From: a virus
Reading direction: 5' to 3' (one strand)
IMG/VR virus record: IMGVR_UViG_3300006841_000093
Span: 32,001 to 96,000 of that record
DNA length: 64,000 nucleotides
Shown here: in pieces, positions 34,253-58,960 of the stretch
Position numbering within the stretch: the first letter of the stretch is position 1
Layout of the letters: every line of letters starts with the position of its first letter
Program-made: the position numbers and the translations under genes
Notes under the pieces: model-generated
Seen by the model: only the letters and a program-made list of their open reading frames with translations
Database searches by the model: none
Told to the model about the DNA's origin: nothing

Positions 34253-34260
34253 TATAAATA
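34253..34260 (+). promoter_or_regulatory. T4-type late promoter
   Basis: TATAAATA, 33 nt upstream of the 34294 ATG (RBS AGGAG). Confidence 0.65.
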
Positions 34261-34293
34261 TATCAGTAAAGTGTATTTTAATGCTAGGAGAAA

Positions 34294-36063
34294 ATGAAAC
34301 GTTTTAAACAAATTACTGCAGATTTATATGATGCCTCTAAATCAGAGAAACTTGCTCATGATTTAGCACTTATTACCGAAAAGGGTGAAGATATATGTGC
34401 AGTAGACATAACTCAGTTAAGGTCTAAAGTTTTACGTGACAGACACGCAAAAATGTGTAAGCCTGAGCCAAAACATTGGAGTAATACAAAGAAAAAACTT
34501 AAAGATACACCTATACAACGAGCAGCAAAACGTGCCGGAATGCAAACAAAAGCACGAAAAGGATTATATAATCAAAAACAACATGATTTTAAAGATTTTT
34601 TAATAGAAGATATTCTCAATGAAGGCCGGAAAGAAATCCAAGCTCAAATAATCTCCGCTGGGAAAGCCGCAGGATTAGAAAAACATTCTAATCTCGCAAG
34701 AGTTTACAATCCTAAAGGAATGAAAAATGGTGATTTTGTTAAACTGATTAAACAAACATTTGAAGTGGATGATGTTGTAGTTCTTGCTCCCAAAGATCAA
34801 GGTAATCCTAGTTCTTCATTTTATACTTTCCTATGGAACGAAAATCAAATAACTCTTGCAGGAGCAGTTAAAGGTAGAGGTAGTAGACAAACAGAAGAAC
34901 AAGAAATATCTTGGCTTTTAGTATTAAGTGGTTATCATCAAGGTTATGGTGAATTAGTAGATGATGAATTTTTAGAAAAATTGTCGGGTGAAGCAAAAGT
35001 ATATTCAAAAATCACTAATTCAAAGGGAAAATTCTTAGGAGAAAGTGACGCACAAGGTTTAGTTTTTTGGTTATCTAATAATAATGATTGGTTACAATCT
35101 CATAGAAAACAGGCAAATAAGTTCATTAAAAGTGTTTCATCAGCACCATTAAGATATGTTAAAGATTATTCTAAACTTGATATAGTTCAACATGCAAAAG
35201 CACTTTTTCCGAAAGCTGTCCCTGGACAAATATTTGATAAAGATAAATGGAATCCAGCAGATGTTTGGCTCTATTATGAAGATTTAACAGAACAAGCAAG
35301 TTTAGCAGACTTAAATAACTATCTCTTAGCTTCTATAGAAGGTGGTAAAGGTATCATAGGTATATCTTTAAAATTAGGTGGAGGTAACGTAAATACAATA
35401 AATGCCAGAAAACGTCCAGTTTATGTTGTTGATGATTTTGATATGAAATTTGGTGATTTATTTGCCCAAAATGTTAATACAGAATATGGTGGAATGGGAA
35501 TGGAAGGCTATTCTGTTATGTATAGACTGTTTAGCCCAAAAATTGGAGAACTTATTAGGGGAGAAGCACAACAGAAAGCGGCTCTAGCGGCACAAGGGAA
35601 AGTTTATTTAAAATATATTGATCATTTAACGGGAGGGGCGCAAGCATCAAAAGCTGTTGCAGGTGTAGCAAAGAAAATTGTAGAGAAAGATAAAAAAACA
35701 GGAGTTTATAAATTTACAACAGATGGTGCAAGGACATTTAATAAAGTCAAGAGAGCATGGCCACTTGTAAGAGATAATAATATAATTGAGTGGGCATCAA
35801 CTGCAAATCCTGCCAATTATGATAGACTTGTAGATTCTAAAACATTTTTAGAATATGTTAATGAATATGCAATAAAAAAGAAGTTGAGAGAAAGTGAAAT
35901 GCAAGTAAGAGTTATGGCACGATTTCAAACTATTATGTTAGGAGCGGTGTTTTCTTCTATAAAACGAAAAAGTGTAGACAAATTACATGAAATTGTATTA
36001 GGTATGTTACTATTTGCTAAATCAGAATCAGTTTGGTCTGCACCACACATGAAGGCACAATAA
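34294..36063 (+). CDS. Large hypothetical protein, possible PD-(D/E)xK nuclease domain
   Basis: EQE...DKWNPADVW...IGISLK pattern; capsid-targeting-like N-terminus MKRFKQI. Confidence 0.5.
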   Translation: MKRFKQITADLYDASKSEKLAHDLALITEKGEDICAVDITQLRSKVLRDRHAKMCKPEPKHWSNTKKKLKDTPIQRAAKRAGMQTKARKGLYNQKQHDFKDFLIEDILNEGRKEIQAQIISAGKAAGLEKHSNLARVYNPKGMKNGDFVKLIKQTFEVDDVVVLAPKDQGNPSSSFYTFLWNENQITLAGAVKGRGSRQTEEQEISWLLVLSGYHQGYGELVDDEFLEKLSGEAKVYSKITNSKGKFLGESDAQGLVFWLSNNNDWLQSHRKQANKFIKSVSSAPLRYVKDYSKLDIVQHAKALFPKAVPGQIFDKDKWNPADVWLYYEDLTEQASLADLNNYLLASIEGGKGIIGISLKLGGGNVNTINARKRPVYVVDDFDMKFGDLFAQNVNTEYGGMGMEGYSVMYRLFSPKIGELIRGEAQQKAALAAQGKVYLKYIDHLTGGAQASKAVAGVAKKIVEKDKKTGVYKFTTDGARTFNKVKRAWPLVRDNNIIEWASTANPANYDRLVDSKTFLEYVNEYAIKKKLRESEMQVRVMARFQTIMLGAVFSSIKRKSVDKLHEIVLGMLLFAKSESVWSAPHMKAQ

Positions 36064-37280
36064 TGTTCGCATTTGCTTCATTTTTAACTGAACAAAAGAA
36101 TCTCCACATGGAACACCTTGAAGATGAGGTGTTAAATGGTGGAGTAGAAGGAACTAGGGGAGCAATAAATTTCCTTCAAGGATTGAGGGATATGTTAGCA
36201 GGAAGTTCAGCTTCTTCTGTAGATGTTACAGTAAAATGGGATGGAGCACCCGCAGTGTTTGCAGGAATTAATCCTGAGAATGATCAATTCTTTGTAGGAA
36301 CAAAAGGTGTATTCGCTAAGAATGCAAAGATAAATTATACTGATACAGATATAGATAATAATCATTCAGGAGGATTAGCAGAGAAACTTAAAGTTGCACT
36401 TAAAGAATTATCCAAAGTAAACATACAAGGTGTTTTACAGGGTGATATGATGTATACTCATAATGATATTACAAAAGAAACGATTGATGGTGAACCTTAT
36501 ATTACTTTTCAACCAAATACTATCGTTTATGCAATACCAGTGAAATCAAAGTTGGCGGCTAAAATCCTGTCCTCTAATATGGGAATCGTATGGCACACCA
36601 CTTATAGTGGAGATACGATGGAGGACATGACCGCCTCCTTTGGTGTTAGTTCGGGGGCGTTTAGTGAAAGTAGTTCAGTATGGCAAGCAGATGCATCATT
36701 CAAAGATCATTCTGGAAGTGCCACTATGACAAGTAAAGAGACTGGTGATGTTACTAAAATATTAAGTCAAGCTGGTAAACTGTTTAGAGAAATAGACTCT
36801 AATACTCTGGCTATGGTAGCGGGAGATCCTACACCAAAAGAATTGATAAAGACGTATAACAATAAAATGGTGAGAGAAGGACAGAAGATTTCAAATCCTA
36901 AAAGACATACTGCAGGAGTGATTAAATTTGTATATGATAAGTTGAAAGCAGATGTAGATAAGGTAAAAAGAGAAAATACGAAAAAAGAGAAACAACGTAA
37001 GATGGATTTATATGTTGACTTTTTCAGAAAACATTCTTCAGATTTAGTCAAGATATTTGCATTACAAAATTTACTTATTGATGCAAAATTAATAATTCTT
37101 AGAAAATTAGAACAAGTTAAATCTATCAAAACGTTAATGAAAACATCTACAGGATTTAAAGTTACTTCTCCAGAGGGGTTCGTTGCTATAGACAAACTCA
37201 AAGGTGGTGCAGTCAAGTTGGTTGATCGAATGGAATTTTCAATGCAAAACTTCAACGCAGCAAAGAATTGGGATAAATGA
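36063..37280 (+). CDS. Conserved T4-like phage protein with covalent nucleotidyltransferase (ligase/capping) motifs
   Basis: KNLHMEHLED, KWDG (motif I), LQGD, FQPN, EGFV and VKLV; start MFAFASFLTE. Confidence 0.55.
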   Translation: MFAFASFLTEQKNLHMEHLEDEVLNGGVEGTRGAINFLQGLRDMLAGSSASSVDVTVKWDGAPAVFAGINPENDQFFVGTKGVFAKNAKINYTDTDIDNNHSGGLAEKLKVALKELSKVNIQGVLQGDMMYTHNDITKETIDGEPYITFQPNTIVYAIPVKSKLAAKILSSNMGIVWHTTYSGDTMEDMTASFGVSSGAFSESSSVWQADASFKDHSGSATMTSKETGDVTKILSQAGKLFREIDSNTLAMVAGDPTPKELIKTYNNKMVREGQKISNPKRHTAGVIKFVYDKLKADVDKVKRENTKKEKQRKMDLYVDFFRKHSSDLVKIFALQNLLIDAKLIILRKLEQVKSIKTLMKTSTGFKVTSPEGFVAIDKLKGGAVKLVDRMEFSMQNFNAAKNWDK

Positions 37281-37489
37281 AAACATTTTCAAAGTATCTA
37301 GAAGAAAATTCCAAGTATATTGTTTCCAAGAACCCAAGCGACAAGAAATGGTATGTAATGGGTCATGTGGGAAGAAACAAATGGATGCCGGTTTCTAGTG
37401 GATTTAAAAACAAAGCCCAAGCTCAGAAGTGGGCAAAGAGTCAAGATAAGGTGGATGACGCGGCTCGCGGAGAAATAGGTGGTGTATAA
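37277..37489 (+). CDS. Small hypothetical protein with CTS-like leader
   Basis: Starts MKTFSKYLEE. Confidence 0.65.
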   Translation: MKTFSKYLEENSKYIVSKNPSDKKWYVMGHVGRNKWMPVSSGFKNKAQAQKWAKSQDKVDDAARGEIGGV

Positions 37490-37661
37490 GATGAAAAAAG
37501 TTATAATACCACATATAGACCACGGTGTTGATATTATTGGTGATGAATGGGAAGATGAAGAAGATGAATCTGAGATGTATGAACAACGAGAAGATCCAGA
37601 TCATCCATACTGTACAAATTGGCCAGTAAATAAAAAAAAGGAAAAACATGGAAACATTTAA
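37479..37661 (+). CDS. Small acidic hypothetical protein
   Basis: Packed operon. Confidence 0.45.
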   Translation: MVYKMKKVIIPHIDHGVDIIGDEWEDEEDESEMYEQREDPDHPYCTNWPVNKKKEKHGNI

Positions 37662-37926
37662 AGAATTTTTTGGTAAAAAGGCTGTAATCGATAAAGATCA
37701 AGAAGAATTAGAAAAACTTGGTTTGAAAGCTGCTGGTAGAGGTGGTTGGTCTAAAAAAGAACAAGATCGATATAATGATCTTTGGATGAAGATGCACAAA
37801 AAGGGTCAAACTCCATTAATGACACCACCAAGTGTATATGATGATGATTCGTGGGGAACTAAAACTACAAAACTTCATAAGAAGTTAAGATTAACTAAAA
37901 AAGATCATTCAAGTGTATTAGCATGA
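37648..37926 (+). CDS. Small hypothetical protein with CTS-like leader
   Basis: Starts METFKEFFGK. Confidence 0.6.
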   Translation: METFKEFFGKKAVIDKDQEELEKLGLKAAGRGGWSKKEQDRYNDLWMKMHKKGQTPLMTPPSVYDDDSWGTKTTKLHKKLRLTKKDHSSVLA

Positions 37927-38951
37927 GTACAGCTGTATTTGCTTTTGGGAGATTTAATCCTCCTACTATCGGACATGAAAAGTTGATAAACGCAGTAATT
38001 GCTACTAATCAACGTGAGGGTGGAACTGCCTACATTTATGGAAGTCATTCACAAGATAGTAGAAAAAATCCCCTTTCACATTCAGAAAAAATGGGATATT
38101 TACAAAAAATGTTCCCACGAATTAAAAAGTCGATACAAACTAAAGCAAAAGAACGAAATGTACTACAAATCGCACATACATTAAATGAAAAATATGATAA
38201 ATTAATATTAGTAGTGGGTAGTGATAGAGTCGATGACTTTACCTCTTTACTAAATAGTTACAATGGGATAAAGTCTAAACATGGATTTTATGAATATAAA
38301 GAAATAAAAGTATATAGTGCAGGTGAAAGAGACCCAGATGCAGATGGTGCTTCTGGAATGTCAGCATCTAAGATGAGATCAGCCGCAACAAAGGGTGATT
38401 TTGAGTCGTTTATATCAGGCGCATCAAGTGAATTAACTATAAAAGAAAAGAGAAATCTAATGAATGATGTACGAAAAGGATTGAAATTAGATTCATTACG
38501 TGAAGCAATGAAACGCCGAAGAGGTTATGAGAAACCTGTTATAGTTGAACATAAAGATAATATTGAAACAAAAGAACTATCTTGGCAAGGTTATGATACT
38601 GTAAATTTATCTACTTGTGTAGAGGCGTTTGAATTATTTGATGAAATAGTTAATAGTGTCGGTGATGGAACGTTTACTGCCCCAGAAAAGGGGTATCTTA
38701 AAGAAGCACTAATGTTGACAGATAAATGTCTTTGTATTTCACAAGTACCAGAAGAAGAAATAACAGAAGAAGATGAAGTGAATTACATAAAAAGTTCAGA
38801 GAAAGCAATAAAACTTTTGGAGACTGTTAAAAAACGAACAGGCATACCATTTGAATATTCGTTTTTGAATGATCTTCAAGTAAAAGTTGCACCTAATGCA
38901 CAACCACGAAAAACATTTACACAATTTTCAGGAGAAATGTATGGCCTCTGA
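37923..38951 (+). CDS. HIGH-superfamily nucleotidyltransferase (cytidylyl/NMN adenylyltransferase-like) with C-terminal extension
   Basis: FGRFNPPTIGHEKL, VVGSDR, SAGERD and SASKMR. Confidence 0.75.
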   Translation: MSTAVFAFGRFNPPTIGHEKLINAVIATNQREGGTAYIYGSHSQDSRKNPLSHSEKMGYLQKMFPRIKKSIQTKAKERNVLQIAHTLNEKYDKLILVVGSDRVDDFTSLLNSYNGIKSKHGFYEYKEIKVYSAGERDPDADGASGMSASKMRSAATKGDFESFISGASSELTIKEKRNLMNDVRKGLKLDSLREAMKRRRGYEKPVIVEHKDNIETKELSWQGYDTVNLSTCVEAFELFDEIVNSVGDGTFTAPEKGYLKEALMLTDKCLCISQVPEEEITEEDEVNYIKSSEKAIKLLETVKKRTGIPFEYSFLNDLQVKVAPNAQPRKTFTQFSGEMYGL

Positions 38952-40077
38952 TAGCCTATTAACAGTAATTCAAGGACTAGTCAAGAGAGATGGTCGAATT
39001 GCAAAAGAAGACGCCAAGAAAGCTAAAGAAGCAGTAAAGGCGCAAAAAGAACAAGAAGATGAAGAAGATGAGGATGAAGAACCAGTAGGAGAACCTGCTG
39101 ATAATCAACCGCCTGCAGATGAGCCACCACCTGAAGAGGGTGAAGATGAAGAAGGTGAAGAAGAGGACGAAGAAGAGGGTGATTATGATAATAAAGTTTC
39201 TGGACCCGATCCTGCATTAGTTCAACAAGTTTCCCAAATAGTTATGCAACAAATACAAGATATGTTGCAGGCAGCAGACGATGCTCAAAAAGATAGAACA
39301 AAAGACGATATTAAACTTTCTGGTAAGAAAGAAAAAATAGATACTAAACCCAAAATGGAACAAATAGTAACAAGGAGAGAAAGAATGAATTTCCAAGAAG
39401 CAATCCGTTTGGCCGTCACGGACACACATCTAGAAGAAGGTTATGAATCTGTTGTCCTTGATATTCTAGAAGATGAAGGTATAGATGGCCCTTTAGGTTA
39501 TGAACCATTTTTTGAAAAAGGTAAATTATATGTAGAAAAAGGTTCAGAAAAGAAAGCCGCAAAGGTACTTAAAAACTCTAAAGATATTCGAAAAGTTCCT
39601 AAAATTGTAGGAGAAGAATTATCAGAAGAAGAGTATCTTCAAATGGAATCAGTAGCCGTTGATGGTAGACTAAAAGGATTTAGAGAAGCCCTTAAACGTT
39701 TAACTTATGAAAAAATTAAAGCAATGAAGGCTAAAGAAGAAGTCAAAAAAGAACATTTGAATGCAGGTCTTGGAAAAGAAGGTGTTGAAAAAGATACTAA
39801 AGGTGATGGAGATGAATATCAAAAGTTCTTCAAAGCAGCACTCAAGAAGTTTGGGGTAGATGAGCCTGATCAACTAGAAGGTGATAAGAAAAAAGAATTC
39901 TTTGATTATGTTGATAAAAATTGGAAGGCCGATAATGAAAAGCCTGAGCCAGAAGATAAAAAAGAAGAAGTTGATATCGAAGAAATGAGAAATATTCTTC
40001 AAAATATGGATATTGATCAACTAACTGATGATATCATTGAGAAAGCCACAAAACTTGTCCAAAAGGCAAAAAAATGA
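38941..40077 (+). CDS. Acidic modular protein, possibly prohead-core related
   Basis: ATG at 38941; D/E/P-rich linker; YQKFFKAALKKFGV...KKKEFFDYVDKNW module. Confidence 0.55.
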   Translation: MASDSLLTVIQGLVKRDGRIAKEDAKKAKEAVKAQKEQEDEEDEDEEPVGEPADNQPPADEPPPEEGEDEEGEEEDEEEGDYDNKVSGPDPALVQQVSQIVMQQIQDMLQAADDAQKDRTKDDIKLSGKKEKIDTKPKMEQIVTRRERMNFQEAIRLAVTDTHLEEGYESVVLDILEDEGIDGPLGYEPFFEKGKLYVEKGSEKKAAKVLKNSKDIRKVPKIVGEELSEEEYLQMESVAVDGRLKGFREALKRLTYEKIKAMKAKEEVKKEHLNAGLGKEGVEKDTKGDGDEYQKFFKAALKKFGVDEPDQLEGDKKKEFFDYVDKNWKADNEKPEPEDKKEEVDIEEMRNILQNMDIDQLTDDIIEKATKLVQKAKK

Positions 40078-41285
40078 AGAGATTTGGAGAGTACATCTCA
40101 AACCAAGATGAAAAAGTAGCTCCATCAATAGAAAAGACAGTAGAAAAGAAATCTATTGATGAAGCTGCTTCTCTTGGAGATTTATTAATTGGTTTAGCTG
40201 CTGCGGGTGGAGCCGCGGGTTTTAAAGCTGCTTGGAATAAATGGGCTCCAACTAAGGGAGCAAGGGCAAAGAGAAAAGAAAAAGCCGATGATAAAGAGGA
40301 ACGAAGACAAGAAAAAATTGCAAAGGCAAAGAAGAAGGGGAACGAAAAGAAGTTAAAAAAATTAATGTCTCCTGATGAATATAAGAAATATGGTGATGAA
40401 AAAACACAAAAGAAAAAAGATGATCAAAAAGCCAAGTTAGATAAAAAGGGTGAAAAAGAAAGAGGTGGAATTGAAGATCCTAAAGATGCTGAAGCATATT
40501 TCAAAAAACATGGTGAGGCGCCAAGAGGATGGAGAAACGCCGCTGCAGATGGTGAAGCTCCAGAGTTGATGACAAGAGCCGATTATGCAAAAGAATTAAA
40601 ACGGCGAAGGAAAATTAACACAAAACAAGAACCAGACAAGAAACCTGAACCAAAAGATAATACTAATGATTCATTTAAACCGGAGGGGGATATGGCTCTA
40701 AAAGAAAGTCCAGAACTTCAAGCAATTATGTCTTTAGATGATGAAGGAATAAAAGCCGATATCAATCGTAAAGGTCAAGTGGTTGTTAAGAAAAAAGATT
40801 TAAAGAAAGCCGAAAAGAAACTGAAAAAAGAATTTGGTGGTAAATTCAAATCATTATTACCAAAACTTGTAGGTGAAGAAGTTCTAGAAGATGGAACTGA
40901 TGCAATGATAAATCAATATAAAAAAGATACTCCAGGACAGAGAACTGCATGGGAAGTAGTATCTAAAGCTCGTGCAAAAATAATTGAAGCGGTTGACGCC
41001 GAGGCAGCAAGAGAATTATACTTATTCATGCAAAATGAAAGATCTTTAATGAGACAAAAAGACTCTATCATTAAGAATATTTCAAATAAAATGAAGAGTG
41101 GTAAATATGATCATAAACAAGCACCTAAACTATGGATGTATTGGGTAGATAATGGCGCAAAAGAATATGATAAATTGTACAGCTCTCCAGGCGTGAAAAC
41201 TTTTGATAAAGATACAAAGATGTCGGTGGCTATTCAGCTAGGTGATGAATATAAAGCCGAAATCGAATTAGGAAATTACAGTTAA
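40074..41285 (+). CDS. Modular K/E-rich protein with CTS-like leader
   Basis: Starts MKRFGEYI; modules bounded by xxE sites. Confidence 0.55.
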   Translation: MKRFGEYISNQDEKVAPSIEKTVEKKSIDEAASLGDLLIGLAAAGGAAGFKAAWNKWAPTKGARAKRKEKADDKEERRQEKIAKAKKKGNEKKLKKLMSPDEYKKYGDEKTQKKKDDQKAKLDKKGEKERGGIEDPKDAEAYFKKHGEAPRGWRNAAADGEAPELMTRADYAKELKRRRKINTKQEPDKKPEPKDNTNDSFKPEGDMALKESPELQAIMSLDDEGIKADINRKGQVVVKKKDLKKAEKKLKKEFGGKFKSLLPKLVGEEVLEDGTDAMINQYKKDTPGQRTAWEVVSKARAKIIEAVDAEAARELYLFMQNERSLMRQKDSIIKNISNKMKSGKYDHKQAPKLWMYWVDNGAKEYDKLYSSPGVKTFDKDTKMSVAIQLGDEYKAEIELGNYS

Positions 41286-41293
41286 GGAATCTA

Positions 41294-41733: not shown

Positions 41734-41741
41734 CATAAATA
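41734..41741 (+). promoter_or_regulatory. Late promoter variant
   Basis: CATAAATA upstream of a structural-like gene. Confidence 0.5.
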
Positions 41742-43225: not shown

Positions 43226-43244
43226 TCCATAGTTTTTTAATGTG

Positions 43245-43939: not shown

Positions 43940-46681
43940 ATGGGCGTAATCACTGGAGCAGCAAATTTATATTTTATCTATAAATTTATAAGGATTCTTA
44001 CTACTCCTTTTAATAAGACTGATGCGTTTAAATTGGGAATTGTAGATGAAAATGGTAAAATTCTCAAGAAAAAGGCAAAATTAAAAACTGATGAAGAAAA
44101 AGATGCCTATACCATGATGCATCGATTGGTATGGAAACTAAAACGATTAATGGAGAAAATTCCATTTGGTAAATCACGTTTAGCATCTTACGCCGCCGCT
44201 CTTTGGTTGATTAAAGAAAACAAAGAAGATAATATTTCAGAAGAAGAATTACAAGAATCATTTTTGTCCTTCTTAGAAACTGATTGGGAAAATGATGCAC
44301 TCATTCTCAAAGAAAACTACGAAGGTGATTTAGATAAAAAAACATTTGAAGATTTAAAAGAAGGTCATAAGAAGGTAAAATTACCACCACACCTCGCAAA
44401 ATTCTTTGACAAAAAAGGTAATCTAAAAAAGGATGCAGCAGATCGTGTCCAAAAAGGTAGAGCACAAAGAGGTGTAAAAATAACAGATAGAACTCCCGAT
44501 TGGATGTTTGAAATAGCACCGCCTGGTTGGGAAGGTACTGTTAAAGCAATGAAAAAGAAAAAAGGAATAGATAATCCTTATGCACTCGCATGGCATATGC
44601 ATAATAAAGGAATGAAACCACACATACCAGAAGAATTGGGAGGAATAATGGGTCAAGCTTTTCAAACCTATCTTGATGAAAAACGAAAATCTTTAAAAAA
44701 TACAAAAGATGTTGGAATGGAATGTCAAGAATGTGGTAAAAAATTTAGAGCCAAATTATCTACATTAGAATATGGTAAAACTAAATGTCCAAAATGTAAG
44801 AGTACAGATCTAGATTTTCAATTTGGTGAGCAAGTAGTAGAGGGGTGGAAAATAGTAGAACATAAGGGTACTAAACCCCATAAACATCCACATGAAGATG
44901 ATGAAGAAATGGATGAAAAGAAAATAATGAAATTAAAAATTAAACCAAAGAAGATTAAAAAGATGAAGGACTTGAGACTTTATGCCCCCTCTAAGAAGAA
45001 AAGTAGTTCACCTTCTTCATCTCCCCACACTCCAGCGTATGGTATATCAAGAAAAGGTGGATTTGGTGCTGGTAAAGGATATGGCACAACTTTCTCAGGA
45101 AAAACACGTTCACCTATTATGTTTGGTGAAGAAGAAATTAATGAAAAGGAAGTAGCAGTACAACCAACAGTAGATAATCTTAAACAGATTGTAAAGGACA
45201 AACAGAATGCAGTGTTCATGTTTAAGGATGGTAAAGCAAGAGTTGATCTTTTCTCTGCATCTGCTTTAATGGGAGTATATAATGCATTAAAACCCGCCAC
45301 AAGAAAGAAGTTTGAAACAATGATTAAGACCAAAGGTGGTTTTATGAAATCGGCAGAATTTGCATTCAAGATGGCGAAAGAAGAAGTAGATCCTCACGCA
45401 AAAGTAATGGCGAAAAAAGGAGATAGTCCAGAAAAGATTAAAGACATGCATCCAGAAATTACGGATGATGAACTAGAAAAACTGTTTAAAGAGGAATTTA
45501 ATATTAAACCTGAAATACCAAAATTTAGTCAATTCTTAAAAGAAGGACGACCATCATTAGATCCCGATTATGTACCTTCGGCCACTTTAACTGATAAAAT
45601 GAGAGCAAAGCTATTATCTACACAGAAAAAGCTTTATTCATCAAAAGACATCGAATCAATGGCCCGGAAGTATAAACAAAAACTTGTCGGAGATCCTGTT
45701 GGTGGAAAATCATGGGGAGGAGATTGGGAAATCGTATTAAGAAATGGTGTAAGTTTATCGTATGAATACGGTCCAAATTCTACTTATATTAAAGGGTGGA
45801 AGTTTGATAGAAAAGCAATACAGAAGTATATTGGTAAATATGCAAATGAGCATGAAACTCCAAGAGACTATGCACCAATGGGAGGAAAAGTTCTAGTCGG
45901 TGGTCTTGAAGCGGCTTTTGAAGTAATTTCTGAGGCAGCAGGGTTTCATAATTATCCAAAAAGAAATAAAGTGGGTGATGAAATAGAAAAACTTGCAAGT
46001 AAAGGTGGAGCGGAAGCAGATAAACTTTTCGTAATAGCTACTGCATTACAGAAAGGTAGAATTCCAAATAAATTTATTAAAGAACTTAGCCCTAAGAGGA
46101 AAAAAGAAGTTCATGCTATTATGAAAGATTTTAAATGGAAAATATTACCAGAAGAAGATGAACTTAATGAACGGAAATATAACTGGGCCGTTATTGATAC
46201 CGCAGATAAAAATAGAGTTCAAGCACTCACAAGTGATGAGAAAGGAGCCCGTGATTCTGTCAAATCTTCTACTATTTCAAAACATGATTATCATTATGGG
46301 AAAGATCCTAAAACTCTGAAGGTTGTTAAACTTAAAAAGGCACATAAAGATAATGATATTGGAGATCCATTAAAAGAAGAAGCACCCGCAAATAGTGTAG
46401 CAGGTGGAAACGTTAATTTAGATCCCTTTAAGAAGAAAAGGAAAAACGCAAAAGTAGAAACAGAATCTTTTGCAGGACAAAAGGTATTCGTAGTTACTCC
46501 AGATGTATATTATCAATCACGATTGGGAAAATCTAGATATTTGAGATATGAAAAATTCGTTGGAAACGATAAATTAGGAGAAGCAATCCGTCAATACGGA
46601 AGAGAAAATCCTAAAGCAGCAATTATTTTAAAGAATTCAGTAAACGGAGCTATGTTATATTTAAAATATGGAAAGAAATAG
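43940..46681 (+). CDS. 913-aa mosaic multi-module protein
   Basis: Conserved N- and C-terminal modules, a Zn ribbon CQECG..CPKC, a GIDNPYALAW module and many (L/I/F)xE junctions. Confidence 0.65.
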   Translation: MGVITGAANLYFIYKFIRILTTPFNKTDAFKLGIVDENGKILKKKAKLKTDEEKDAYTMMHRLVWKLKRLMEKIPFGKSRLASYAAALWLIKENKEDNISEEELQESFLSFLETDWENDALILKENYEGDLDKKTFEDLKEGHKKVKLPPHLAKFFDKKGNLKKDAADRVQKGRAQRGVKITDRTPDWMFEIAPPGWEGTVKAMKKKKGIDNPYALAWHMHNKGMKPHIPEELGGIMGQAFQTYLDEKRKSLKNTKDVGMECQECGKKFRAKLSTLEYGKTKCPKCKSTDLDFQFGEQVVEGWKIVEHKGTKPHKHPHEDDEEMDEKKIMKLKIKPKKIKKMKDLRLYAPSKKKSSSPSSSPHTPAYGISRKGGFGAGKGYGTTFSGKTRSPIMFGEEEINEKEVAVQPTVDNLKQIVKDKQNAVFMFKDGKARVDLFSASALMGVYNALKPATRKKFETMIKTKGGFMKSAEFAFKMAKEEVDPHAKVMAKKGDSPEKIKDMHPEITDDELEKLFKEEFNIKPEIPKFSQFLKEGRPSLDPDYVPSATLTDKMRAKLLSTQKKLYSSKDIESMARKYKQKLVGDPVGGKSWGGDWEIVLRNGVSLSYEYGPNSTYIKGWKFDRKAIQKYIGKYANEHETPRDYAPMGGKVLVGGLEAAFEVISEAAGFHNYPKRNKVGDEIEKLASKGGAEADKLFVIATALQKGRIPNKFIKELSPKRKKEVHAIMKDFKWKILPEEDELNERKYNWAVIDTADKNRVQALTSDEKGARDSVKSSTISKHDYHYGKDPKTLKVVKLKKAHKDNDIGDPLKEEAPANSVAGGNVNLDPFKKKRKNAKVETESFAGQKVFVVTPDVYYQSRLGKSRYLRYEKFVGNDKLGEAIRQYGRENPKAAIILKNSVNGAMLYLKYGKK

Positions 46682-46691
46682 GAAATAAAAT

Positions 46692-47086: not shown

Positions 47087-47365
47087 ATGAAAACTTTTAA
47101 AGAATTAACAGATGAATTAATTTCACGTTGGAGTGAGGCCGTAAAGAGAAAGGTAGTATTCAGAGGTGGAAAACGACAGGTGAAAAAAGTTACCGATAAA
47201 GCGGGATTTAAAATGGTAGGTGGTAAAGAAGTTAAAATGGATGCTAAAGAAAAAATGAAACGTAAAAAGGGTGCCAAAATTGCTGCAAGAAAAGCAAAAA
47301 GTAAAAAAGGAGTAGCAGCAAAGAAGCGTCTTAAGTCATTGAAAAAAGGTGGACATATAAAATGA
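47087..47365 (+). CDS. Basic prohead core protein-like (gp68-like)
   Basis: MKTFKELTDE leader, then VFRGGKRQVKK..GFKMVGG..KM..KEK.KRKKGAK..ARK..KRLKSL, resembling gp68-family C-termini. Confidence 0.5.
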   Translation: MKTFKELTDELISRWSEAVKRKVVFRGGKRQVKKVTDKAGFKMVGGKEVKMDAKEKMKRKKGAKIAARKAKSKKGVAAKKRLKSLKKGGHIK

Positions 47366-47619
47366 AAACGTATTCAAGGTTTAAAGAAGGTTCATTAGAC
47401 GACAAACTTGATAAGTACGTTAGTAACGAAATCAAGAAAAGGAAACTCGCAAGATTTCCTGTGAATGCTACTGATGACTACCAAATGAAAAAGAAGAAAC
47501 CTGCGTTTACTTTTCCATCACCAACAGGCGAAATGATAATTAAAGTGTGGTTAAGACCTATGGCAAAACCCGCAAAGAGCCATACAAAAGCATTTAATTA
47601 CGAATTGGATGATAAGTAA
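47362..47619 (+). CDS. Small hypothetical protein with CTS-like leader
   Basis: Starts MKTYSRFKE. Confidence 0.6.
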   Translation: MKTYSRFKEGSLDDKLDKYVSNEIKKRKLARFPVNATDDYQMKKKKPAFTFPSPTGEMIIKVWLRPMAKPAKSHTKAFNYELDDK

Positions 47620-48473
47620 TGTTAACCCTAAAAGAATATGCTGTATACAGTACTTCAGATTATGTATTCACATGGGATGATCACATACCGATATCTGGTC
47701 CTATGTTAAAAAGAATCTGGCCAAATTCAATTCGTGCCACAGTCTTTCATGCTACTGATTTAAAAGGACTTCATTCATTGATAAGAATGGAAGGAAGTAA
47801 AAAAACTATTTCTGCATTTTTCTCAATGATGGGAAAATATATGGGAACTGGTGTAGCTACAGGAGGGGGTATCGTTGCAGAGTTAGAAGCCGATGTTCTT
47901 GTATCTGCAAGAGATGATATAATGAGTAAAGTAGATAAAACGGGTAGAAGATGGGTTACATTAGATTTCTTTTCATCTGCCGCAAGAAACTACTTAGGTC
48001 GTGACCGATTCGCTATGGTAGAAAAAGAGTTTTTATCATTAAAACAATACTTAGTTTCTAAACATGTAGATAAAAATCTTTATAATCAAAATATGTGGAA
48101 AGATGTCTGGAAAGAAATGAAAGATTATCTAAAATATGATGGTAGAAAAATAGCTGCGGTGATAAAAGATTATTTTGATGGTGTAGAGAAAATTCTTAAA
48201 AGACATGAAGATATAATGGGTAGTATTATGTATGGTTATGCAAGATCAAAAAGACAAACTGATAATTCATGGGATGAACAAATAGTCAATAACTTCACGA
48301 TTAAGAAAATTCATGTTCTTGAAGTAAAAGGCTATGAAGATGCAGATTATGTATATCATGATGAAATAAAAGATATTGGAAGACCAATTAAGAAATGGGA
48401 TTCTGATGTAGATTTGGAAATGTATACAAGACAAGTCGTTGCAAAAGAAGTACCAGCAAGGAAAAAGAGATGA
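47619..48473 (+). CDS. Hypothetical protein, ADP-ribosyltransferase-like (paralog A)
   Basis: VFHAT..ISAF..GGIVAELEAD..WDEQIV; paralog of 49657. Confidence 0.4.
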   Translation: MLTLKEYAVYSTSDYVFTWDDHIPISGPMLKRIWPNSIRATVFHATDLKGLHSLIRMEGSKKTISAFFSMMGKYMGTGVATGGGIVAELEADVLVSARDDIMSKVDKTGRRWVTLDFFSSAARNYLGRDRFAMVEKEFLSLKQYLVSKHVDKNLYNQNMWKDVWKEMKDYLKYDGRKIAAVIKDYFDGVEKILKRHEDIMGSIMYGYARSKRQTDNSWDEQIVNNFTIKKIHVLEVKGYEDADYVYHDEIKDIGRPIKKWDSDVDLEMYTRQVVAKEVPARKKR

Positions 48474-49042
48474 TATCTTTCAAAAAATATTCAGATATTT
48501 CAACTAAGGTAGCAAAGAAATTAAAACTTTCAAAAGATAAGGCTCTTGAACTTATTGTGAAAGCACAACAAAAAGGTTATGATCCTTTAAAGTGGCAAAG
48601 AAATCTATCAATATTAACCACTATGTCTGCTGAATATGATCCAGAGATAAAGGAAAAAACAATGTCATCAAGACAAAAACTTCAACAGATGCAACACTAT
48701 TGGGATAATCTTTGGCACATGGCATCAGATGTAGTAAAAAAGAAAAACATGTTTATGAGATTTGGTATTAAAAATATTAAATTGGGTAAGGGTGGAAGAA
48801 AGATATTATCATTTGATGAAGATAGAGATTATAAAGCAGAATATAAAAAATTCCAATCATCTAAAAAGATGAAGAAATATAGAGCAGAATTAAATAAATA
48901 CAATCGAGATAAGGGAACTTATGGAAATGGTGATGGTAAAGATGCATCTCATAAAGGCGGAAAGATTGTGGGAATGGAAGACCAAAGTGTTAATAGGGGT
49001 AGAGCAGAAAAAAGTAGATTAGTAGGATCAAAGAGAAAATGA
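48470..49042 (+). CDS. Protein with C-terminal HNH-like domain
   Basis: RDYKAEY...GDGKDASHK...VNRGR. Confidence 0.5.
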   Translation: MISFKKYSDISTKVAKKLKLSKDKALELIVKAQQKGYDPLKWQRNLSILTTMSAEYDPEIKEKTMSSRQKLQQMQHYWDNLWHMASDVVKKKNMFMRFGIKNIKLGKGGRKILSFDEDRDYKAEYKKFQSSKKMKKYRAELNKYNRDKGTYGNGDGKDASHKGGKIVGMEDQSVNRGRAEKSRLVGSKRK

Positions 49043-49097
49043 TGGGGCTGACTTACCAAAGGCCAACCCCTGACAGTTTTTCATGCCATAGGTATTT

Positions 49098-49274
49098 ATG
49101 AAAGAAGAAAGATTAATTTCAAGTATAGTTATGATAACTTTTTTAGGATTGTGGTTTATAGTTTTATTTACATTTGGATTACTTGTATATCAAACATCAT
49201 CATATCAAGGTCAAGTTGATGAACTTATAAAAGAAAATGCCAAGATAACAACATTATGGATGGAAAAAAATTAA
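49098..49274 (+). CDS. Small TM protein (58 aa)
   Basis: MKEERLISSIVMITFLGLWFIVLFTFGLLVY...; its TAA overlaps the next ATG (TAATG). Confidence 0.5.
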   Translation: MKEERLISSIVMITFLGLWFIVLFTFGLLVYQTSSYQGQVDELIKENAKITTLWMEKN

Positions 49275-49660
49275 TGAAAACATTTTCTACATATATCTTT
49301 GAAAGAATATCAAAGTCAGATTTAGATCAAGTAGAAAAATATGCAGATAGATTATTTGCAGCAGTTGGAATAGATGTTGAATTTACTAGACATTTTCATG
49401 ATAGAGTGAACGATGAACGAAATAAGAAACCAATCAATTCAGCGGAGTTGGTTAGATTATTTCGTTTAACATACAAGAAGTATGGTAAGAAAATTGCACA
49501 GATGAATCCAGATGCAGAAGCAGTCATTACAGATATGGAAACAGATGTTAATATGCCATTTGTAATCAATCTTGATAAAGGTGGAATGTTAGATCTCGTT
49601 GCAAAAACAGTAATGAGAAAGAAAGATTTTAAAACTAGTAGTCAGAAATTAAGGGTATGA
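49274..49660 (+). CDS. RegB/RelE-like (BECR-fold) ribonuclease candidate
   Basis: MKTFSTYIFE leader; VEFTRHFHDRVNDERN...I and LVAKTVMRK. Confidence 0.4.
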   Translation: MKTFSTYIFERISKSDLDQVEKYADRLFAAVGIDVEFTRHFHDRVNDERNKKPINSAELVRLFRLTYKKYGKKIAQMNPDAEAVITDMETDVNMPFVINLDKGGMLDLVAKTVMRKKDFKTSSQKLRV

Positions 49661-50547
49661 AATCATTTAGAGGATATTTACAAGAACGTGCACCGGCGTG
49701 GACAGAAAGTTTGTCTACTGCGTTGTTTGATCTTACACGAACACACTACATGATACCATTATCACCTTCAATCTTGAAGAGGATATGGCCTAAACTGCCT
49801 CGTACAACTGTATTTCATTTAACAGATCGAGTTGGTGTTCAACATTTAAAAAAGATGCAGGGGGGCAAAAGATCAATTTCAGCATTTTGGAATATAACTG
49901 CTAGAGCCATTGATGATGGAATCAGAACAGATGGTGGTTATGTTGTAGAATTAGAAGGAGATATTCTTGCGGCGAATCCCGATGATATAATGAGTCAACC
50001 GGATAAAACAGGAAGAAGGTGGTTAACTTTAAGTACATTACTTGATCCTGTTGATAAACATGGTATGGGTGGTGGAGTAAAACTCAAGAGAATGGAAAAT
50101 GATATAGAAGAAATGATGATAGAAATTATTATGAAATATGCAGATGATCCGATACACATGCCGAATGTTAAGAATTCTTGGATTGCTCTTGGTAAAGAAT
50201 ATGGAAGCAGAAGTCCAGAAGATAATAAAATTAAAGGTCAGATCATAGGAGATTATATCGATGGTATGGAAGGTGTTATGAAAAAGCACTCTAAACAATT
50301 AAAATCGGTACTTTTAGATTACTCTAAGAAAAAAATACAAGAACCGGATGAAGATAGTGGAGATACACCAGAATGGGATGAAGTAGTGGTTAATAATTTT
50401 AAAATTCAAAGGATTCATGTTACTCCCGAATTTTCATTAGACTTTGAGGGTGATAAAGATATATATGGATTTCCATTTGAACTATATCATGAAACAGAAG
50501 AAATGGTAGATTACATCAATAGAACAGTACAACCTATAAAGATATGA
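49657..50547 (+). CDS. Hypothetical protein, ADP-ribosyltransferase-like (paralog B)
   Basis: MKSFRGYLQE leader; VFHLT..ISAF..GGYVVELEGD..EWDEVVV. Confidence 0.4.
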   Translation: MKSFRGYLQERAPAWTESLSTALFDLTRTHYMIPLSPSILKRIWPKLPRTTVFHLTDRVGVQHLKKMQGGKRSISAFWNITARAIDDGIRTDGGYVVELEGDILAANPDDIMSQPDKTGRRWLTLSTLLDPVDKHGMGGGVKLKRMENDIEEMMIEIIMKYADDPIHMPNVKNSWIALGKEYGSRSPEDNKIKGQIIGDYIDGMEGVMKKHSKQLKSVLLDYSKKKIQEPDEDSGDTPEWDEVVVNNFKIQRIHVTPEFSLDFEGDKDIYGFPFELYHETEEMVDYINRTVQPIKI

Positions 50548-50553
50548 TAAAAG

Positions 50554-51298: not shown

Positions 51299-51299
51299 A

Positions 51300-51692
51300 A
51301 TGGCATATTCAGATAAGGTATTAAAGCATTATGAACGACCAAGTAATGTTGGTAGTTTGGATAGTGGGAGTAATTCTGTGGGCACTGGCCTTGTGGGTGC
51401 TCCAGAGTGTGGTGATGTAATGAAACTCCAAATCCAAGTAGACGATAAAGGAACAATAGTTGATGCCAAGTTTAAAACATTTGGTTGTGGGTCGGCTATT
51501 GCTGCGAGTTCATTAGCAACAGAGTGGATTAAAGATAAACCACTTGATGAAGCAGAAACAATTAAAAACACAGAGATAGTTAATGAACTATCTTTACCTC
51601 CAGTTAAAATACATTGTAGTGTTCTTGCTGAAGATGCAATTAAAGCTGCAATCAAAGACTATAAGAGTAAAAATGGCTATGAGAACGTTTAA
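51300..51692 (+). CDS. iscU: Fe-S scaffold IscU
   Basis: MAYSDKVLKHY, GAPECGDVMKLQI, FGCGSAIA and LPPVKIHCSVLAEDA. Confidence 0.95.
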   Translation: MAYSDKVLKHYERPSNVGSLDSGSNSVGTGLVGAPECGDVMKLQIQVDDKGTIVDAKFKTFGCGSAIAASSLATEWIKDKPLDEAETIKNTEIVNELSLPPVKIHCSVLAEDAIKAAIKDYKSKNGYENV

Positions 51693-52317
51693 ATCATTCT
51701 TGACAGAAGACATATCAGCAGTAACAAAAGAATTTACAGAACTTTTAGTTGATAATGTATATTCTCAATATGTAAAACAATATAGTAAACATTCAGAAAA
51801 ATGTGTAGGTTGGTTAGATGGAGAAGAAAATTCTCAATTAAGACTTCAAAAAATATATGAAGGTGGAATCGGTGACAATGATTCTATTTTAGATGTAGGT
51901 TGTGGAGTGGGTCATCTTCATAGATACTTAAAAGAACAGGGGTGGAACGGAAAATATTTAGGATTTGATCCAAATAAAAAAGCAATTGATTTGATTGATG
52001 AAAGTATCAATGCAATACATGGTACAATAGAAGATTTGGATGAAACAAAATATGATTGGGCTATTTCAAATGGTGTTTTTAATTTAGGATTAAAAGAATC
52101 ACATACATTTTGGATTATTGAAAATATGGTAAGACTTACCAATAAAGGAATTATATTCAATATGTTACAAGCACCATACGAAGATTCACAATATGAGGCA
52201 TATAATCCAATGTGGATTCATTATAGATTACAAGAACATAATCACAAAAGAATAGAAATTGTTCAAAATTATATGGATAAGGATCAAGAATTTACTGTTT
52301 ATTTTTATAAGGTATAA
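51679..52317 (+). CDS. Class I SAM-dependent methyltransferase with CTS-like leader
   Basis: Start MRTFKSFLTE at 51679; LDVGCGVG and SNGVFN. Confidence 0.75.
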   Translation: MRTFKSFLTEDISAVTKEFTELLVDNVYSQYVKQYSKHSEKCVGWLDGEENSQLRLQKIYEGGIGDNDSILDVGCGVGHLHRYLKEQGWNGKYLGFDPNKKAIDLIDESINAIHGTIEDLDETKYDWAISNGVFNLGLKESHTFWIIENMVRLTNKGIIFNMLQAPYEDSQYEAYNPMWIHYRLQEHNHKRIEIVQNYMDKDQEFTVYFYKV

Positions 52318-52833
52318 ATGGATAAAAAATTTAAACATTATATAGTAGAATTCGATACACCACAAATTTATTGTGATATGGATGGAGTGTTAGCAGATTT
52401 TGAAAAGGGAGTAAAAAATATGATTGGGGGCAAATTTTCTGATGCTAGATGGGCAGAATTACCAGATGATTTTTTCTTACAATTAGAACCAATGAAAGAC
52501 GCACAAAAATTGTGGGATTTTATTGGAAAATATGATCCACTTATTTTAACTGCCGTTCCAAGATCCTCTAGAGGACCTATTGCGGCAAGGGCAACAGAAG
52601 ATAAAACTAGATTTATGAAAAGGTGGTTTGGTGTTTCTCCCAATAGGATGTATCCTGTCATGAGAGCGGATAAAATGAGATTCGCAAAAGATGGTAGAGA
52701 TGGAAGACCCAATTTACTCATTGATGATCACTCTAAGAATATTGCACAATTTAGGGCCGCTGGGGGTATAGGAGTACATCATCTAAGTGCAAGTGGAAGT
52801 ATTAAACAACTGAAAGACATTGGTTATAAGTGA
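52318..52833 (+). CDS. HAD-family 5'(3')-deoxyribonucleotidase-like phosphatase
   Basis: YCDMDGVLADF, ILTA and LLIDDHSKN. Confidence 0.85.
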   Translation: MDKKFKHYIVEFDTPQIYCDMDGVLADFEKGVKNMIGGKFSDARWAELPDDFFLQLEPMKDAQKLWDFIGKYDPLILTAVPRSSRGPIAARATEDKTRFMKRWFGVSPNRMYPVMRADKMRFAKDGRDGRPNLLIDDHSKNIAQFRAAGGIGVHHLSASGSIKQLKDIGYK

Positions 52834-52839
52834 GGTGAA

Positions 52840-53676: not shown

Positions 53677-53700
53677 ACAAATAGATAATTAAGGATTTCA

Positions 53701-54045: not shown

Positions 54046-54053
54046 GGTAGATT

Positions 54054-55579: not shown

Positions 55580-55590
55580 AGGAATAACAC

Positions 55591-56184: not shown

Positions 56185-56191
56185 AAATGAA

Positions 56192-57317: not shown

Positions 57318-57320
57318 ATA
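57313..57320 (+). promoter_or_regulatory. Possible late promoter
   Basis: AATAAATA upstream of 57348. Confidence 0.35.
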
Positions 57321-57347
57321 TTACAAAAATAAACAAAAGGGGAAAAA

Positions 57348-58220
57348 ATGGCAGAAGAAATGATGGATTTCGGATTTAGTGCCGTAACCGCAGATGAATA
57401 TGAAAAAGACCAGACAGATGGTGAAAATACTGGACTTGGAGGGGCTGCCAGTCCTGAAGCACTTGCTGCATTAGATTATAAGATTGAACAAATTATAGGT
57501 CATTTATCAACTAAAGCAGATGAATCAAGTAGTAGTGATTTTGGATTTACTCAAGAGGATAAAGATAAACAAGAGGGAAAATTACAAGATATTGAAGAAA
57601 AAATTGATAAGATTCTTTCATTAGAATTAGATGAAGAACGAGCACAAACTACAGCAGATATTCTTTCACAATTAAATGATGCAACTGGAGATTCTAGAAC
57701 AGCTTCAGCAGAAGCAAAGAAGTCAGTAGGAAAACAAGATGAGATCATGAAGTTCCTACAAGATATGTCACCAAAGGTTGATAAGATTCTTAAACTAGAG
57801 AGTCTTGAAAGTCTTCTAGAAGGTACTTCAGGTAAGTTAGATAGTTTATCAGAAGTCGCAGGAGCAGTACAAACTGTTTCGGCTGATCCTCCCGATTTAT
57901 CACCAATCGTAGAAAAATTAGAATTCATGGATAAAGATATCCAAAAGATTCTAAAGATGGAACAGTTAGAAGCTGTTACTGCACTACAAAAATCCTCTCA
58001 TGATATGACATCATTAGCAAAAGAACTCGAAGAAAGAAAAAAGGATATAGATATTAAATATAAAGCTCGTATGTTAGCAGTAGAAAAGTTAATTCTTCCT
58101 TTGATAGAGAACCTTCAAAAAGATGGAAATACAAAAGAATATATTAGATGGCCAAATAGAATACCTATCTTAGAAGCTCAAAAACAAAAAATTATACAAG
58201 TTACAAGGTCTGAACTATGA
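57348..58220 (+). CDS. Coiled-coil protein with internal repeats
   Basis: Three K(I/V)xKIL(S/K)(L/M)E-like repeats; C-terminal LPLIENL..KEYIRWPNR. Confidence 0.65.
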   Translation: MAEEMMDFGFSAVTADEYEKDQTDGENTGLGGAASPEALAALDYKIEQIIGHLSTKADESSSSDFGFTQEDKDKQEGKLQDIEEKIDKILSLELDEERAQTTADILSQLNDATGDSRTASAEAKKSVGKQDEIMKFLQDMSPKVDKILKLESLESLLEGTSGKLDSLSEVAGAVQTVSADPPDLSPIVEKLEFMDKDIQKILKMEQLEAVTALQKSSHDMTSLAKELEERKKDIDIKYKARMLAVEKLILPLIENLQKDGNTKEYIRWPNRIPILEAQKQKIIQVTRSEL

Positions 58221-58960
58221 GATTTGGAGATTTAAAACAAGAACTTTTAGAAGGTGTATATGATCCTGGCATTTTTAAAGCATTCTTCTTAGCAGGAGGT
58301 GCGGGAAGTGGTAAGTCATATTCAGCAGAAAAAGCAACTGGATCAGCTGCAGGAAAATTTTCTTGGGATTCTTCTATGGAGAAGATTACTCCTGGTAAGG
58401 TCGGTCCTTTTGGATTGAAAGTAGTCAACTCTGATGAACAATTAGAATATGGTTTGATGAAAGCAAAGATGTCTTCTAATATGAAGGCATATACTGATGA
58501 TGATACTACAAGAAAAGAACTGATTAGAGCAAAAGCCAAAAAGAAGACAGCAAAAAAAGAACAGTTATGGGTCAATGGAAGATTAGGATTAATCATTGAT
58601 GGTACTGCTAAAGATATAACTAAACTTAGTATAAAGAAAAAAGCACTAGAAGATGTTGGTTATGATACTCACATGATATTTGTTAATACTTCCCTTGATG
58701 TTGCAATTCAACAAAATAATTCAAGAAAAAGAAAACTTCCTGATGAAATTATTAGACAAACATGGAATGAAGTTCAAGGAATTAAAAATGAACTTGCTAA
58801 TCTATTTGCTGGAGGATTTGTTGAAATTGTTAATAATAGAGCAGGAGAAGATGTATTTCGAAAATCATTTGTCGAAGTAGGTAAACTTATAAAACGCCCA
58901 CCAACTAAACCTGCCGCAAAAATGTGGATCGCTCAAGAACTAGAACAGAAAAAGAGGTAA
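58217..58960 (+). CDS. P-loop kinase (zeta-toxin/AAA_33-like)
   Basis: GGAGSGKS, VNSD, IIDGT and RKRKLP. Confidence 0.75.
   Translation: MRFGDLKQELLEGVYDPGIFKAFFLAGGAGSGKSYSAEKATGSAAGKFSWDSSMEKITPGKVGPFGLKVVNSDEQLEYGLMKAKMSSNMKAYTDDDTTRKELIRAKAKKKTAKKEQLWVNGRLGLIIDGTAKDITKLSIKKKALEDVGYDTHMIFVNTSLDVAIQQNNSRKRKLPDEIIRQTWNEVQGIKNELANLFAGGFVEIVNNRAGEDVFRKSFVEVGKLIKRPPTKPAAKMWIAQELEQKKR

Follow-up and report, generated by a model that had tools for sequence, protein, structure and literature searches.

In bacteriophage T4, the internal proteins, which have been described as highly basic (PMC8442874), are brought into the head by a short N-terminal peptide. In the T4 record, this capsid targeting sequence (CTS) reads MKTYQEFIAE on both ipII and ipIII, and genetic work on IPIII assigned residues 4 and 7 to targeting and residues 8 and 10 to processing (PMC9026906, section 2.6). 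According to the papers that cite the original work, finding ip genes of T-even phages by this signal sequence is established practice (Repoila 1994, cited in PMC9026906 and PMC12373910). Packaged enzymes are also either known or predicted. T4 Alt is a head-packaged and injected ADP-ribosyltransferase (ART) that gp21 cuts at ITE-6 and LTE-619 (PMC5694885), and Iyer, Burroughs, and Aravind predicted a variety of head-packaged effector fusions, including MuF- or portal-fused ARTs, Nudix and 2H domains, and polyvalent proteins (PMC9503650). In addition, the ejection proteins of phiKZ-like and SPN3US jumbo phages are cut at (S/A/G)-x-E by a prohead protease resembling that of T4 (PMC5694885, PMC7411985). 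Here, we analyze a related N-terminal peptide in a stretch of 64,000 nucleotides (hereafter the window), which comprises bases 32,001 to 96,000 of the one-contig virus record IMGVR_UViG_3300006841_000093 (134,505 bp, estimated complete). Between positions 34,253 and 58,960 of the window, unrelated proteins begin with the ten-residue leader M-K-[T/S]-F-x-x-[Y/F/H]-[L/I]-x-E. With a probability of roughly two in three, we regard this leader as the phage's own version of the T4 CTS, and its carriers as proteins that are packaged and trimmed.

The genome is that of a T4-like marine myophage. Its nearest annotated relative is Methylophilales phage Melnitz-3 (Kyanoviridae), whose DUF6267 protein is 52% identical, and Pelagibacter phage HTVC008M and T4-like cyanophages are more remote; a megablast of the whole region against phage records gave no matches. 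All candidate carriers, as well as the cytidylyltransferase-like gene, the mosaic gene, and the two promoters discussed below, are on the plus strand.

A Ten-Residue Leader on Unrelated Proteins

Six proteins possess the leader in its clear form: those encoded at 36063..37280 (MFAFASFLTE), 37277..37489 (MKTFSKYLEE), 47087..47365 (MKTFKELTDE), 49274..49660 (MKTFSTYIFE), 49657..50547 (MKSFRGYLQE), and 51679..52317 (MRTFKSFLTE). A seventh, at 52318..52833 (MDKKFKHYIVE), fits with a shift of one residue. The MK.F...aromatic half alone is retained in the proteins starting at 34294, 37648, 40074, and 47362, while that at 47619 has a degenerate copy and belongs to a family that is fully tagged elsewhere; all five of these partial leaders are backed by full leaders on relatives. 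At 48470 and 58217, the match is marginal. A sequence-only reading of this DNA had listed about 14 such proteins. All 14 N-termini that it quoted are present at their starts and the motif is real, but the count was too high, as it resolves into 6–7 strong, approximately 5 partial, and 2 weak cases.

To avoid circularity, four features were fixed in advance from T4 genetics, namely an aromatic residue at positions 4 and 7, an aliphatic residue at position 8, and Glu at position 10. All four are found in 5 of 216 N-termini, compared to 0.07 expected from internal positions (P = 1.5e-8), and of the seven N-termini that have three or more features, six are located within 34253–58960 (Fisher P = 1.3e-4). 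Of the five four-feature starts, three were moved post hoc to the Met of the leader; in every case, the choice is supported by the new start overlapping the gene before it by 1 or 14 nt, and orthologues provide further support for 36063 and 49274. When a scoring matrix was derived exclusively from the leaders of relatives, it yielded six clear scores of 10–19 bits (51679, 49657, 37277, 47087, 49274, and 36063), all between 36 and 52 kb of the window, and nothing comparable elsewhere in the genome. The genome-wide enrichment that had been proposed as a check is thus real and clustered, and, in agreement with the earlier reading, none of the replication genes scores comparably to the carriers.

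Relatives were sampled through the neighborhoods of DUF6267 homologues in 79 IMG/VR contigs. The tagged proteins in these contigs form at least 19 clusters that share no similarity past residue 14, and different Pfam domains stand behind the same tag. In a family-weighted logo of 19 families, M1 is followed by K2 (0.84), T/S3 (0.87), F4 (0.79), K5 (0.54), a variable residue, H/Y/F/W7 (0.90), L/I8 (0.75), a further variable residue, and E10 (0.66), after which information content falls sharply to approximately 0.6 bit from residue 11. This abrupt drop indicates that the tag is a ten-residue unit, of the same length as T4 MKTYQEFIAE. Synonymous codons differ at the conserved positions, which implies that selection acts on the peptide; a nucleotide-level (translational) signal was ruled out on the same grounds.

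The leader may also be present or absent among orthologues. The DUF6267 protein starts with MFAFASFLTE|QKNLHMEHLEDE here and with MANVTQLKHLEHIEDE, without a leader, in cyanophage P-HM1; the NT5C enzyme starts with MDKKFKHYIVE|FDTPQIYCDMD here and with the leaderless MNELPQIYCDMD in the related contig L079. Conversely, the cytidylyltransferase-like enzyme is leaderless here (37923..38951) and tagged in Melnitz (MKKFSEIIEA) and HTVC008M (MKTLKELLRK). Pfam and PHROG models start downstream of the leader, and in both AlphaFold models the leader is of low confidence or unstructured. Taken together, these sequence comparisons support a leader that is modular, is defined at the protein level, is attached to unrelated proteins, and is gained or lost between orthologues.

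Correspondence to the T4 Targeting Sequence, Head Protease, and Capsid Maturation Site

The tag agrees with T4 MKTYQEFIAE at all four functionally mapped residues (4, 7, 8, and 10). In T4, replacement of Glu10 by Asp abolishes processing while targeting is retained. As the tag is nearly the same as the head-loading tag of T4, its carriers are likely to be packaged in the virion, with the tag removed by the head protease. A gp21-type protease gene (Peptidase_S77) is present at genome positions 9459–10106, with the domain at 9519–9962 (E = 1.2e-36, above the cut-off). Moreover, in the capsid-protein alignment, T4 FLTE|AEIGG is matched by VFMTE|AA here and by AFLGE|I in HTVC008M, with Phe and Glu invariant. 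VFMTE|AA is therefore the predicted maturation site of the capsid protein, and the second half of the tag has the same four-residue pattern as this predicted cut. Between the protease and capsid genes lies a gene for a very acidic protein of 398 residues, whose assignment as a gp22-type scaffold is by position.

Similar motifs occur where tagged proteins appear to have been fused. The 589-residue basic protein at 34294..36063 contains, at its fusion joint, the internal peptide QHDFKDFLIE (residues 96–105), which equals a leader without its Met-Lys-Thr. In addition, copies of the family represented by 49657 that are embedded in longer public proteins keep [Y/F/H]-L-x-E immediately before the domain (e.g., FKRKGGYLRE and SDNFLTE). 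If such joints are cut by the protease, the processing half would be expected to persist while the targeting half decays, as is the case here.

Screening for DNA that could encode the tag gave at least 120 matching viral stretches. Among 85 matches that were inspected, 82 open an open reading frame (ORF) of at least 50 codons, and 73 are at the start of a gene. All nine long viral contigs found by the DNA pattern alone carry Peptidase_S77, even though several are just 17–57% complete; such co-occurrence is a necessary condition for the packaging model, not a proof of it. A related, slightly broader pattern retrieves ipII and ipIII in T4, and the reversed pattern, used as a control, had no matches in five genomes.

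The carriers are also basic, with a median isoelectric point (pI) of 9.5, compared to 5.7 for the other plus-strand genes; a pI of at least 8.5 was found for 12 of 14 carriers and 32 of 180 others (P = 3e-7). The small basic carriers of 70–92 residues (37277, 37648, 47087, and 47362), together with the lysine-rich protein of 403 residues at 40074, are the nearest counterparts of the T4 internal proteins.

Two observations in other phages concern the same peptide and the same locus. T4 gp61.1 (L090:67-231; NC_000866 18966-19130, minus strand), a hypothetical protein of 54 residues, starts with MKTFKEFIKE, a near-perfect CTS; its gene is located between genes 41 and 61, where the present phage has its leader cluster. 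In HTVC008M, the syntenic cluster (L087:6562-7224 and neighbors; 106.5–116.4 kb) has the leaders MKSFKDFQN, MRTYRAFKK, MKTFTDFST, and MKTLKELLRK, which retain the MK[ST][FL] half, mostly lack L-x-E at positions 8–10, and resemble the longer T4 IPI type.

Proposed Mechanism and Comparison with Known Systems

We infer the following course for the tagged proteins. By means of Phe4 and the aromatic residue 7, which make up the first half of the tag, the protein would dock on the scaffolding core during prohead assembly, after which a gp21-type prohead protease would cut behind Glu10, much as the protease is predicted to do at the aromatic-aliphatic-x-Glu motif of the major capsid protein. The mature, mostly basic proteins would stay alongside the DNA inside the head and would probably be carried with it into the host, where they might act against host defence. 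Where two tagged genes have fused, the tag would persist as an internal joint. The cargo would consist of small basic proteins resembling the T4 internal proteins and of enzymes, including a ligase-like DUF6267 protein, a methyltransferase, a HAD phosphatase, a P-loop kinase, and possibly an ART-fold family.

As in the T4 CTS/internal-protein system, a ten-residue tag, M-K-T-[Y/F]-x-x-[F/Y]-[I/L]-x-E, heads proteins that are mostly basic and otherwise unrelated, the genome encodes a protease of the gp21 family, the aromatic-aliphatic-x-Glu motif recurs at the capsid maturation site, and the carriers are found in variable genome regions. However, the present phage belongs to another family (Kyanoviridae-type marine phages with OM43 or SAR11-like hosts), has 6–12 carriers rather than three, and frequently has His at position 7; many of its carriers are enzymes of 130–600 residues, whereas those of T4 are small inhibitors. 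Its tagged genes also fuse into multi-module proteins that keep the cleavage half at their joints, and, unlike the T4 system, it is known from sequence alone. T4 Alt is similar in that the cargo is an enzyme whose short N-terminal propeptide ends in aliphatic-x-Glu, and the 47619/49657 family may share its ART fold; yet this family has no sequence similarity to Alt, and its weak fold match (Z of approximately 5) is to DarT, CteC, and Tpt1 rather than to Alt/VIP2. With the predicted head-packaged effector fusions, the locus has in common the idea of myoviruses delivering enzyme domains with their DNA, combined in multi-domain proteins, but the address here is a cleavable ten-residue peptide instead of fusion to a structural head domain. 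In the phiKZ-like and SPN3US phages, too, a gp21-related protease cuts many head proteins behind Glu, and the cargo includes paralogue families, but these phages differ in cleavage motif, in their long propeptides, and in having no conserved ten-residue N-terminal tag.

Expression of the Leader Genes

The earlier reading had the run of leader genes beginning at a promoter and described it as late-expressed. The first point holds: a T4-type late promoter, TATAAATA, is located at 34253..34260, 33 nt upstream of the ATG at 34294. This canonical element has five intergenic copies in the genome, the others preceding the tail-tube gene (one), the head-gene cluster (two), and a non-structural gene at 11181 (one, at window 11132). 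It is conserved in relatives, where, of the 48 ORFs that immediately follow TATAAATA, 38 start with M[KR][STNAP][FLY], compared to 91 of 561 others, a difference that is inflated by shared ancestry. A weaker, late-promoter-like site, CATAAATA (41734..41741), is located before 41776, whose product is homologous to a virion structural protein of a cyanophage, and covers the genes up to approximately 43225. A strong intrinsic terminator, consisting of a 10-bp stem and a T run, follows at 43244–43267, after the gene at 42782–43225. Late expression, as read from these signals, is thus supported for 34294–41727 and, by the weaker site, as far as approximately 43225; the claim does not extend to the second cluster beyond the terminator. 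A scan for sigma-70 promoters gave counts that match those in shuffled sequence and is therefore uninformative on timing. The best sigma-70-type promoter of the region (59820–59847; TTGACT, 16 nt, TG-TATAAT) is located just before the gp61 primase gene, which we read as the end of the leader region and a return to early-type expression.

Putative Cargo of the First Cluster

In the 589-residue basic fusion protein at 34294..36063, the N-terminal module starts with MKRFKQ and has LITE at residues 26–29. Its two halves are separate ORFs in relatives, in which the second ORF has a leader of its own (MKTLVSYIKE, MRSFKSHL, or MLNFKGW). The C-terminal domain of approximately 490 residues belongs to a family that is viral only and unannotated; a search of the ESM Atlas with it returned viral hypothetical clusters alone, the restriction-endonuclease rows (0.85) being within chance.

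The adjacent DUF6267 protein (36063..37280), whose Pfam model starts at residue 13, has a KWDG motif at residues 58–61 in which K58, D60, and G61 are invariant. Residues 57–213 of its structural model match nine DNA/RNA ligase nucleotidyltransferase domains with Z scores of 4.9–5.5, although model confidence is limited (predicted local distance difference test, pLDDT, of 69, low around K58). These scores are weak but coherent, and they suggest a ligase-like protein. Sequence searches of the PDB with this protein, the DUF6267 profile, and 34294 gave no match, and Foldseek searches of the PDB with the DUF6267 and 49657-family models gave none below E = 0.001; the weak ligase and ART fold matches were obtained solely from a slower all-against-all aligner.

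Next follow the internal-protein-like 37277..37489 (70 residues, pI 9.8) and a basic protein of 92 residues at 37648..37926, which has the variant leader METFKEFFGKK and orthologues that start with MKSYKVWQEGWF or MKTFTQYHEGWF. Beyond the cytidylyltransferase-like gene, the protein encoded at 38941-40077 is leaderless and very acidic (pI 4.6, 27% Asp+Glu); its family reaches 740–840 residues in relatives through added modules, one of which is preceded by LKTFKADMKE. This protein could be a scaffold-like partner for the basic cargo. The lysine-rich protein of 403 residues (pI 9.4) at 40074..41285 has the partial leader MKRFGEYISN.

Between the terminator and the second cluster, 43940..46681 encodes a mosaic protein of 913 residues, in which modules that are tagged elsewhere have been inserted into a conserved protein of approximately 200 residues. 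The first ~125 and last ~80 residues match this ~200-residue protein of relatives, with a zinc ribbon and other modules in between, and module borders are marked by AFQTYLDE (residues 240–247, nt 44657–44680) and KFSQFLKE (residues 527–534, nt 45518–45541).

Putative Cargo of the Second Cluster

The second cluster starts with a very basic protein of 92 residues at 47087..47365 (pI 11.0), the leader of which, MKTFKELTDE, is near that of T4 IPI (MKTFKEFTST), followed by a basic protein of 85 residues at 47362..47619 with the partial leader MKTYSRFKE. The gene at 47619..48473 (MLTLKEY) encodes a paralogue of 49657, the protein at 48470..49042 is basic, with 190 residues and the weak leader-like start MISFKKYSD, and that at 49274..49660 is basic, with 128 residues; in contig L074, the 49274 domain forms the C-terminal part of a protein with a 43940-type N-terminus.

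The 296-residue protein at 49657..50547 and its paralogue at 47619 represent an expanded family, of which relatives have as many as five copies in tandem and public data contain 886 representative clusters. Invariant residues are R49, H54, S75, E98, and GRR119-121, including S-x-S and E-x-E-like residues. Pfam and Foldseek found no match for this family. The 49657 model has a pLDDT of 84.7 (below 50 in the leader), and its best fold matches lead the list but are weak (DarT1, Z 5.2; CteC, 5.0; DarTG, 5.0/4.3/4.2; Tpt1, 4.3), so the assignment of an ART fold is tentative. Kinship with T4 Alt was rejected (hhalign probability 0.1%). Domains of the 49657 type also occur in public proteins of 650–1350 residues (P0048, P0095, and P0111), where they accompany either a domain resembling cytidylyltransferases or an RNA-binding domain of the poly(A)-polymerase/CCA type, and these fusions point to nucleic-acid, possibly RNA-end, chemistry.

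Three small leaderless genes lie mid-cluster at 50554-51692, and their N-termini resemble iron-sulfur assembly proteins (two IscA/HesB-like and one IscU-like). They are followed by two enzymes assigned by Pfam: a class I S-adenosylmethionine (SAM)-dependent methyltransferase at 51679..52317, with its domain starting at residue 66, and an NT5C/HAD-type nucleotidase at 52318..52833. A zeta-toxin-type P-loop kinase (Pfam) at 58217..58960 is a weak candidate, with a short N-terminal extension ending in LLE before the conserved GVYDPGIFKAFF; its HTVC008M homologue (MIPFILKE|GLYDPGIFKAFF) is located within the ligase-like/cytidylyltransferase cluster. Of the activities proposed earlier, the methyltransferase, the NT5C phosphatase, and the kinase are borne out by Pfam, the ligase-like protein by its KWDG motif and weak fold matches, and the ART tentatively. 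Neither an RNase nor an HNH domain was found among the carriers by Pfam, where searches of the eight carriers without annotation, with E values of up to 5 allowed, returned noise only, so these two labels cannot be assigned to any gene.

The ligase-like protein, kinase, phosphatase, methyltransferase, and nucleotidyltransferase resemble, speculatively, an RNA-repair set. A bolder extension, which we consider doubtful, is that the tag serves as a plug-in address for loading a changeable enzyme kit (these five activities and a Tpt1/DarT-like ART-fold protein), that the RNA-repair set would be delivered with the DNA and would undo the cleavage of tRNA or other RNA by host defences before phage genes are expressed, and that fused cargo would be cut at tag remnants by the head protease.

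Alternative Explanations

Several points weigh against packaging. The window has a T4-like gene order (sliding clamp, clamp loader, DNA polymerase, UvsX, gp41 helicase, leader region, gp61 primase, and ribonucleotide reductase), whereas terminase, sheath, tube, portal, prohead protease, the acidic scaffold-like protein, and the major capsid protein are encoded upstream in the genome; the leader cluster therefore sits between the helicase and primase genes, away from the head genes. The terminator at 43244 separates the late-promoter operons from the downstream leader genes, and no recognizable late promoter precedes the second cluster (47–52 kb, or ahead of 43287–58960 as a whole), so that late expression is supported for the first operon only. 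Several of the listed proteins are without the L/I-x-E half of the tag; these processing determinants are present in the 6–7 strong carriers and absent from 34294 (N-terminus), 37648, 40074, and 48470. DUF6267 and the cytidylyltransferase have cyanophage homologues that function despite being leaderless, which means that the capsid is not needed for the activity of these enzymes. No virion proteomics was found in the Melnitz or pelagimyophage papers. Finally, many orthologues across related contigs are not independent, so P-values based on them are inflated, and the co-occurrence of the tag with Peptidase_S77 may partly mirror a restriction of the tag to the T4-like lineage.

The principal alternative, which we consider unlikely, is that the tag has a purpose other than capsid loading, for example, docking to a chaperone or hub, or a degradation or activation signal that times cytoplasmic activity, and that the proteins are never packaged. 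It would account for the position of the cluster beside replication genes, the leaderless and cytoplasmic homologues of tagged enzymes in cyanophages, and the lack of a late promoter in front of 43287–58960. On the other hand, the coincidence with the T4 CTS in length and at all four mapped residues and the identity of the second half with the predicted capsid-protein maturation site speak against it, as do the basic nature of the carriers, which is like that of DNA-associated head proteins, the retention of the cleavage half at fusion joints, and the S77 protease in nine of nine contigs.

Rather improbable is a second alternative, in which the tagged proteins are targeted to the prohead core and cleaved but act during assembly only, or are degraded or expelled like T4 gp22, gp67, and gp68, so that no enzyme cargo is injected. 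T4 core proteins are likewise substrates of the protease (PMC5694885), 47087 shows marginal similarity to a head-scaffolding PHROG (E = 9.7e-4), and the acidic scaffold-like protein 38941-40077 is encoded within the cluster. Folded enzymes with a single predicted N-terminal cut, however, resemble T4 Alt and the internal proteins and are unlike scaffold proteins, which are acidic, whereas the carriers are basic.

Chance similarity, or an N-terminus shared by descent among paralogues, is excluded: although 47619 and 49657 are indeed paralogues and MK starts are frequent in AT-rich phages, five matches occur where 0.07 are expected, at least 19 tagged families have dissimilar mature parts, different Pfam domains stand behind one tag, and the reversed pattern had no matches.

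The description of the leaders as T4 internal-protein-like is thus supported in part, by the modular tag, its agreement with the mapped T4 residues and the capsid site, the protease, the promoter, and the basic carriers, with corrections to the number of proteins and to the extent of late expression.

Implications

We found no report in the literature of this tag in marine Kyanoviridae-type phages, and the pelagimyophage, Melnitz, cyanophage-comparison, and T4-relatives papers contain no mention of internal proteins or targeting leaders. The tag may offer a simple means of recognizing, by sequence, effectors that uncultured T4-like phages deliver with the virion, because the DNA pattern alone recovered solely contigs with the matching protease (9/9 long contigs). 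If packaging is true, DUF6267 would be given a setting, as would an unannotated family of 886 clusters, and the reading is directly testable since the relatives Melnitz, HTVC008M, and Mosig are cultured. The T4 internal-protein mechanism, which has been studied in T-even coliphages with small inhibitors as cargo, would then extend to abundant myophages of streamlined marine heterotrophs, and the tag would be able to carry whole enzymes and multi-module proteins.

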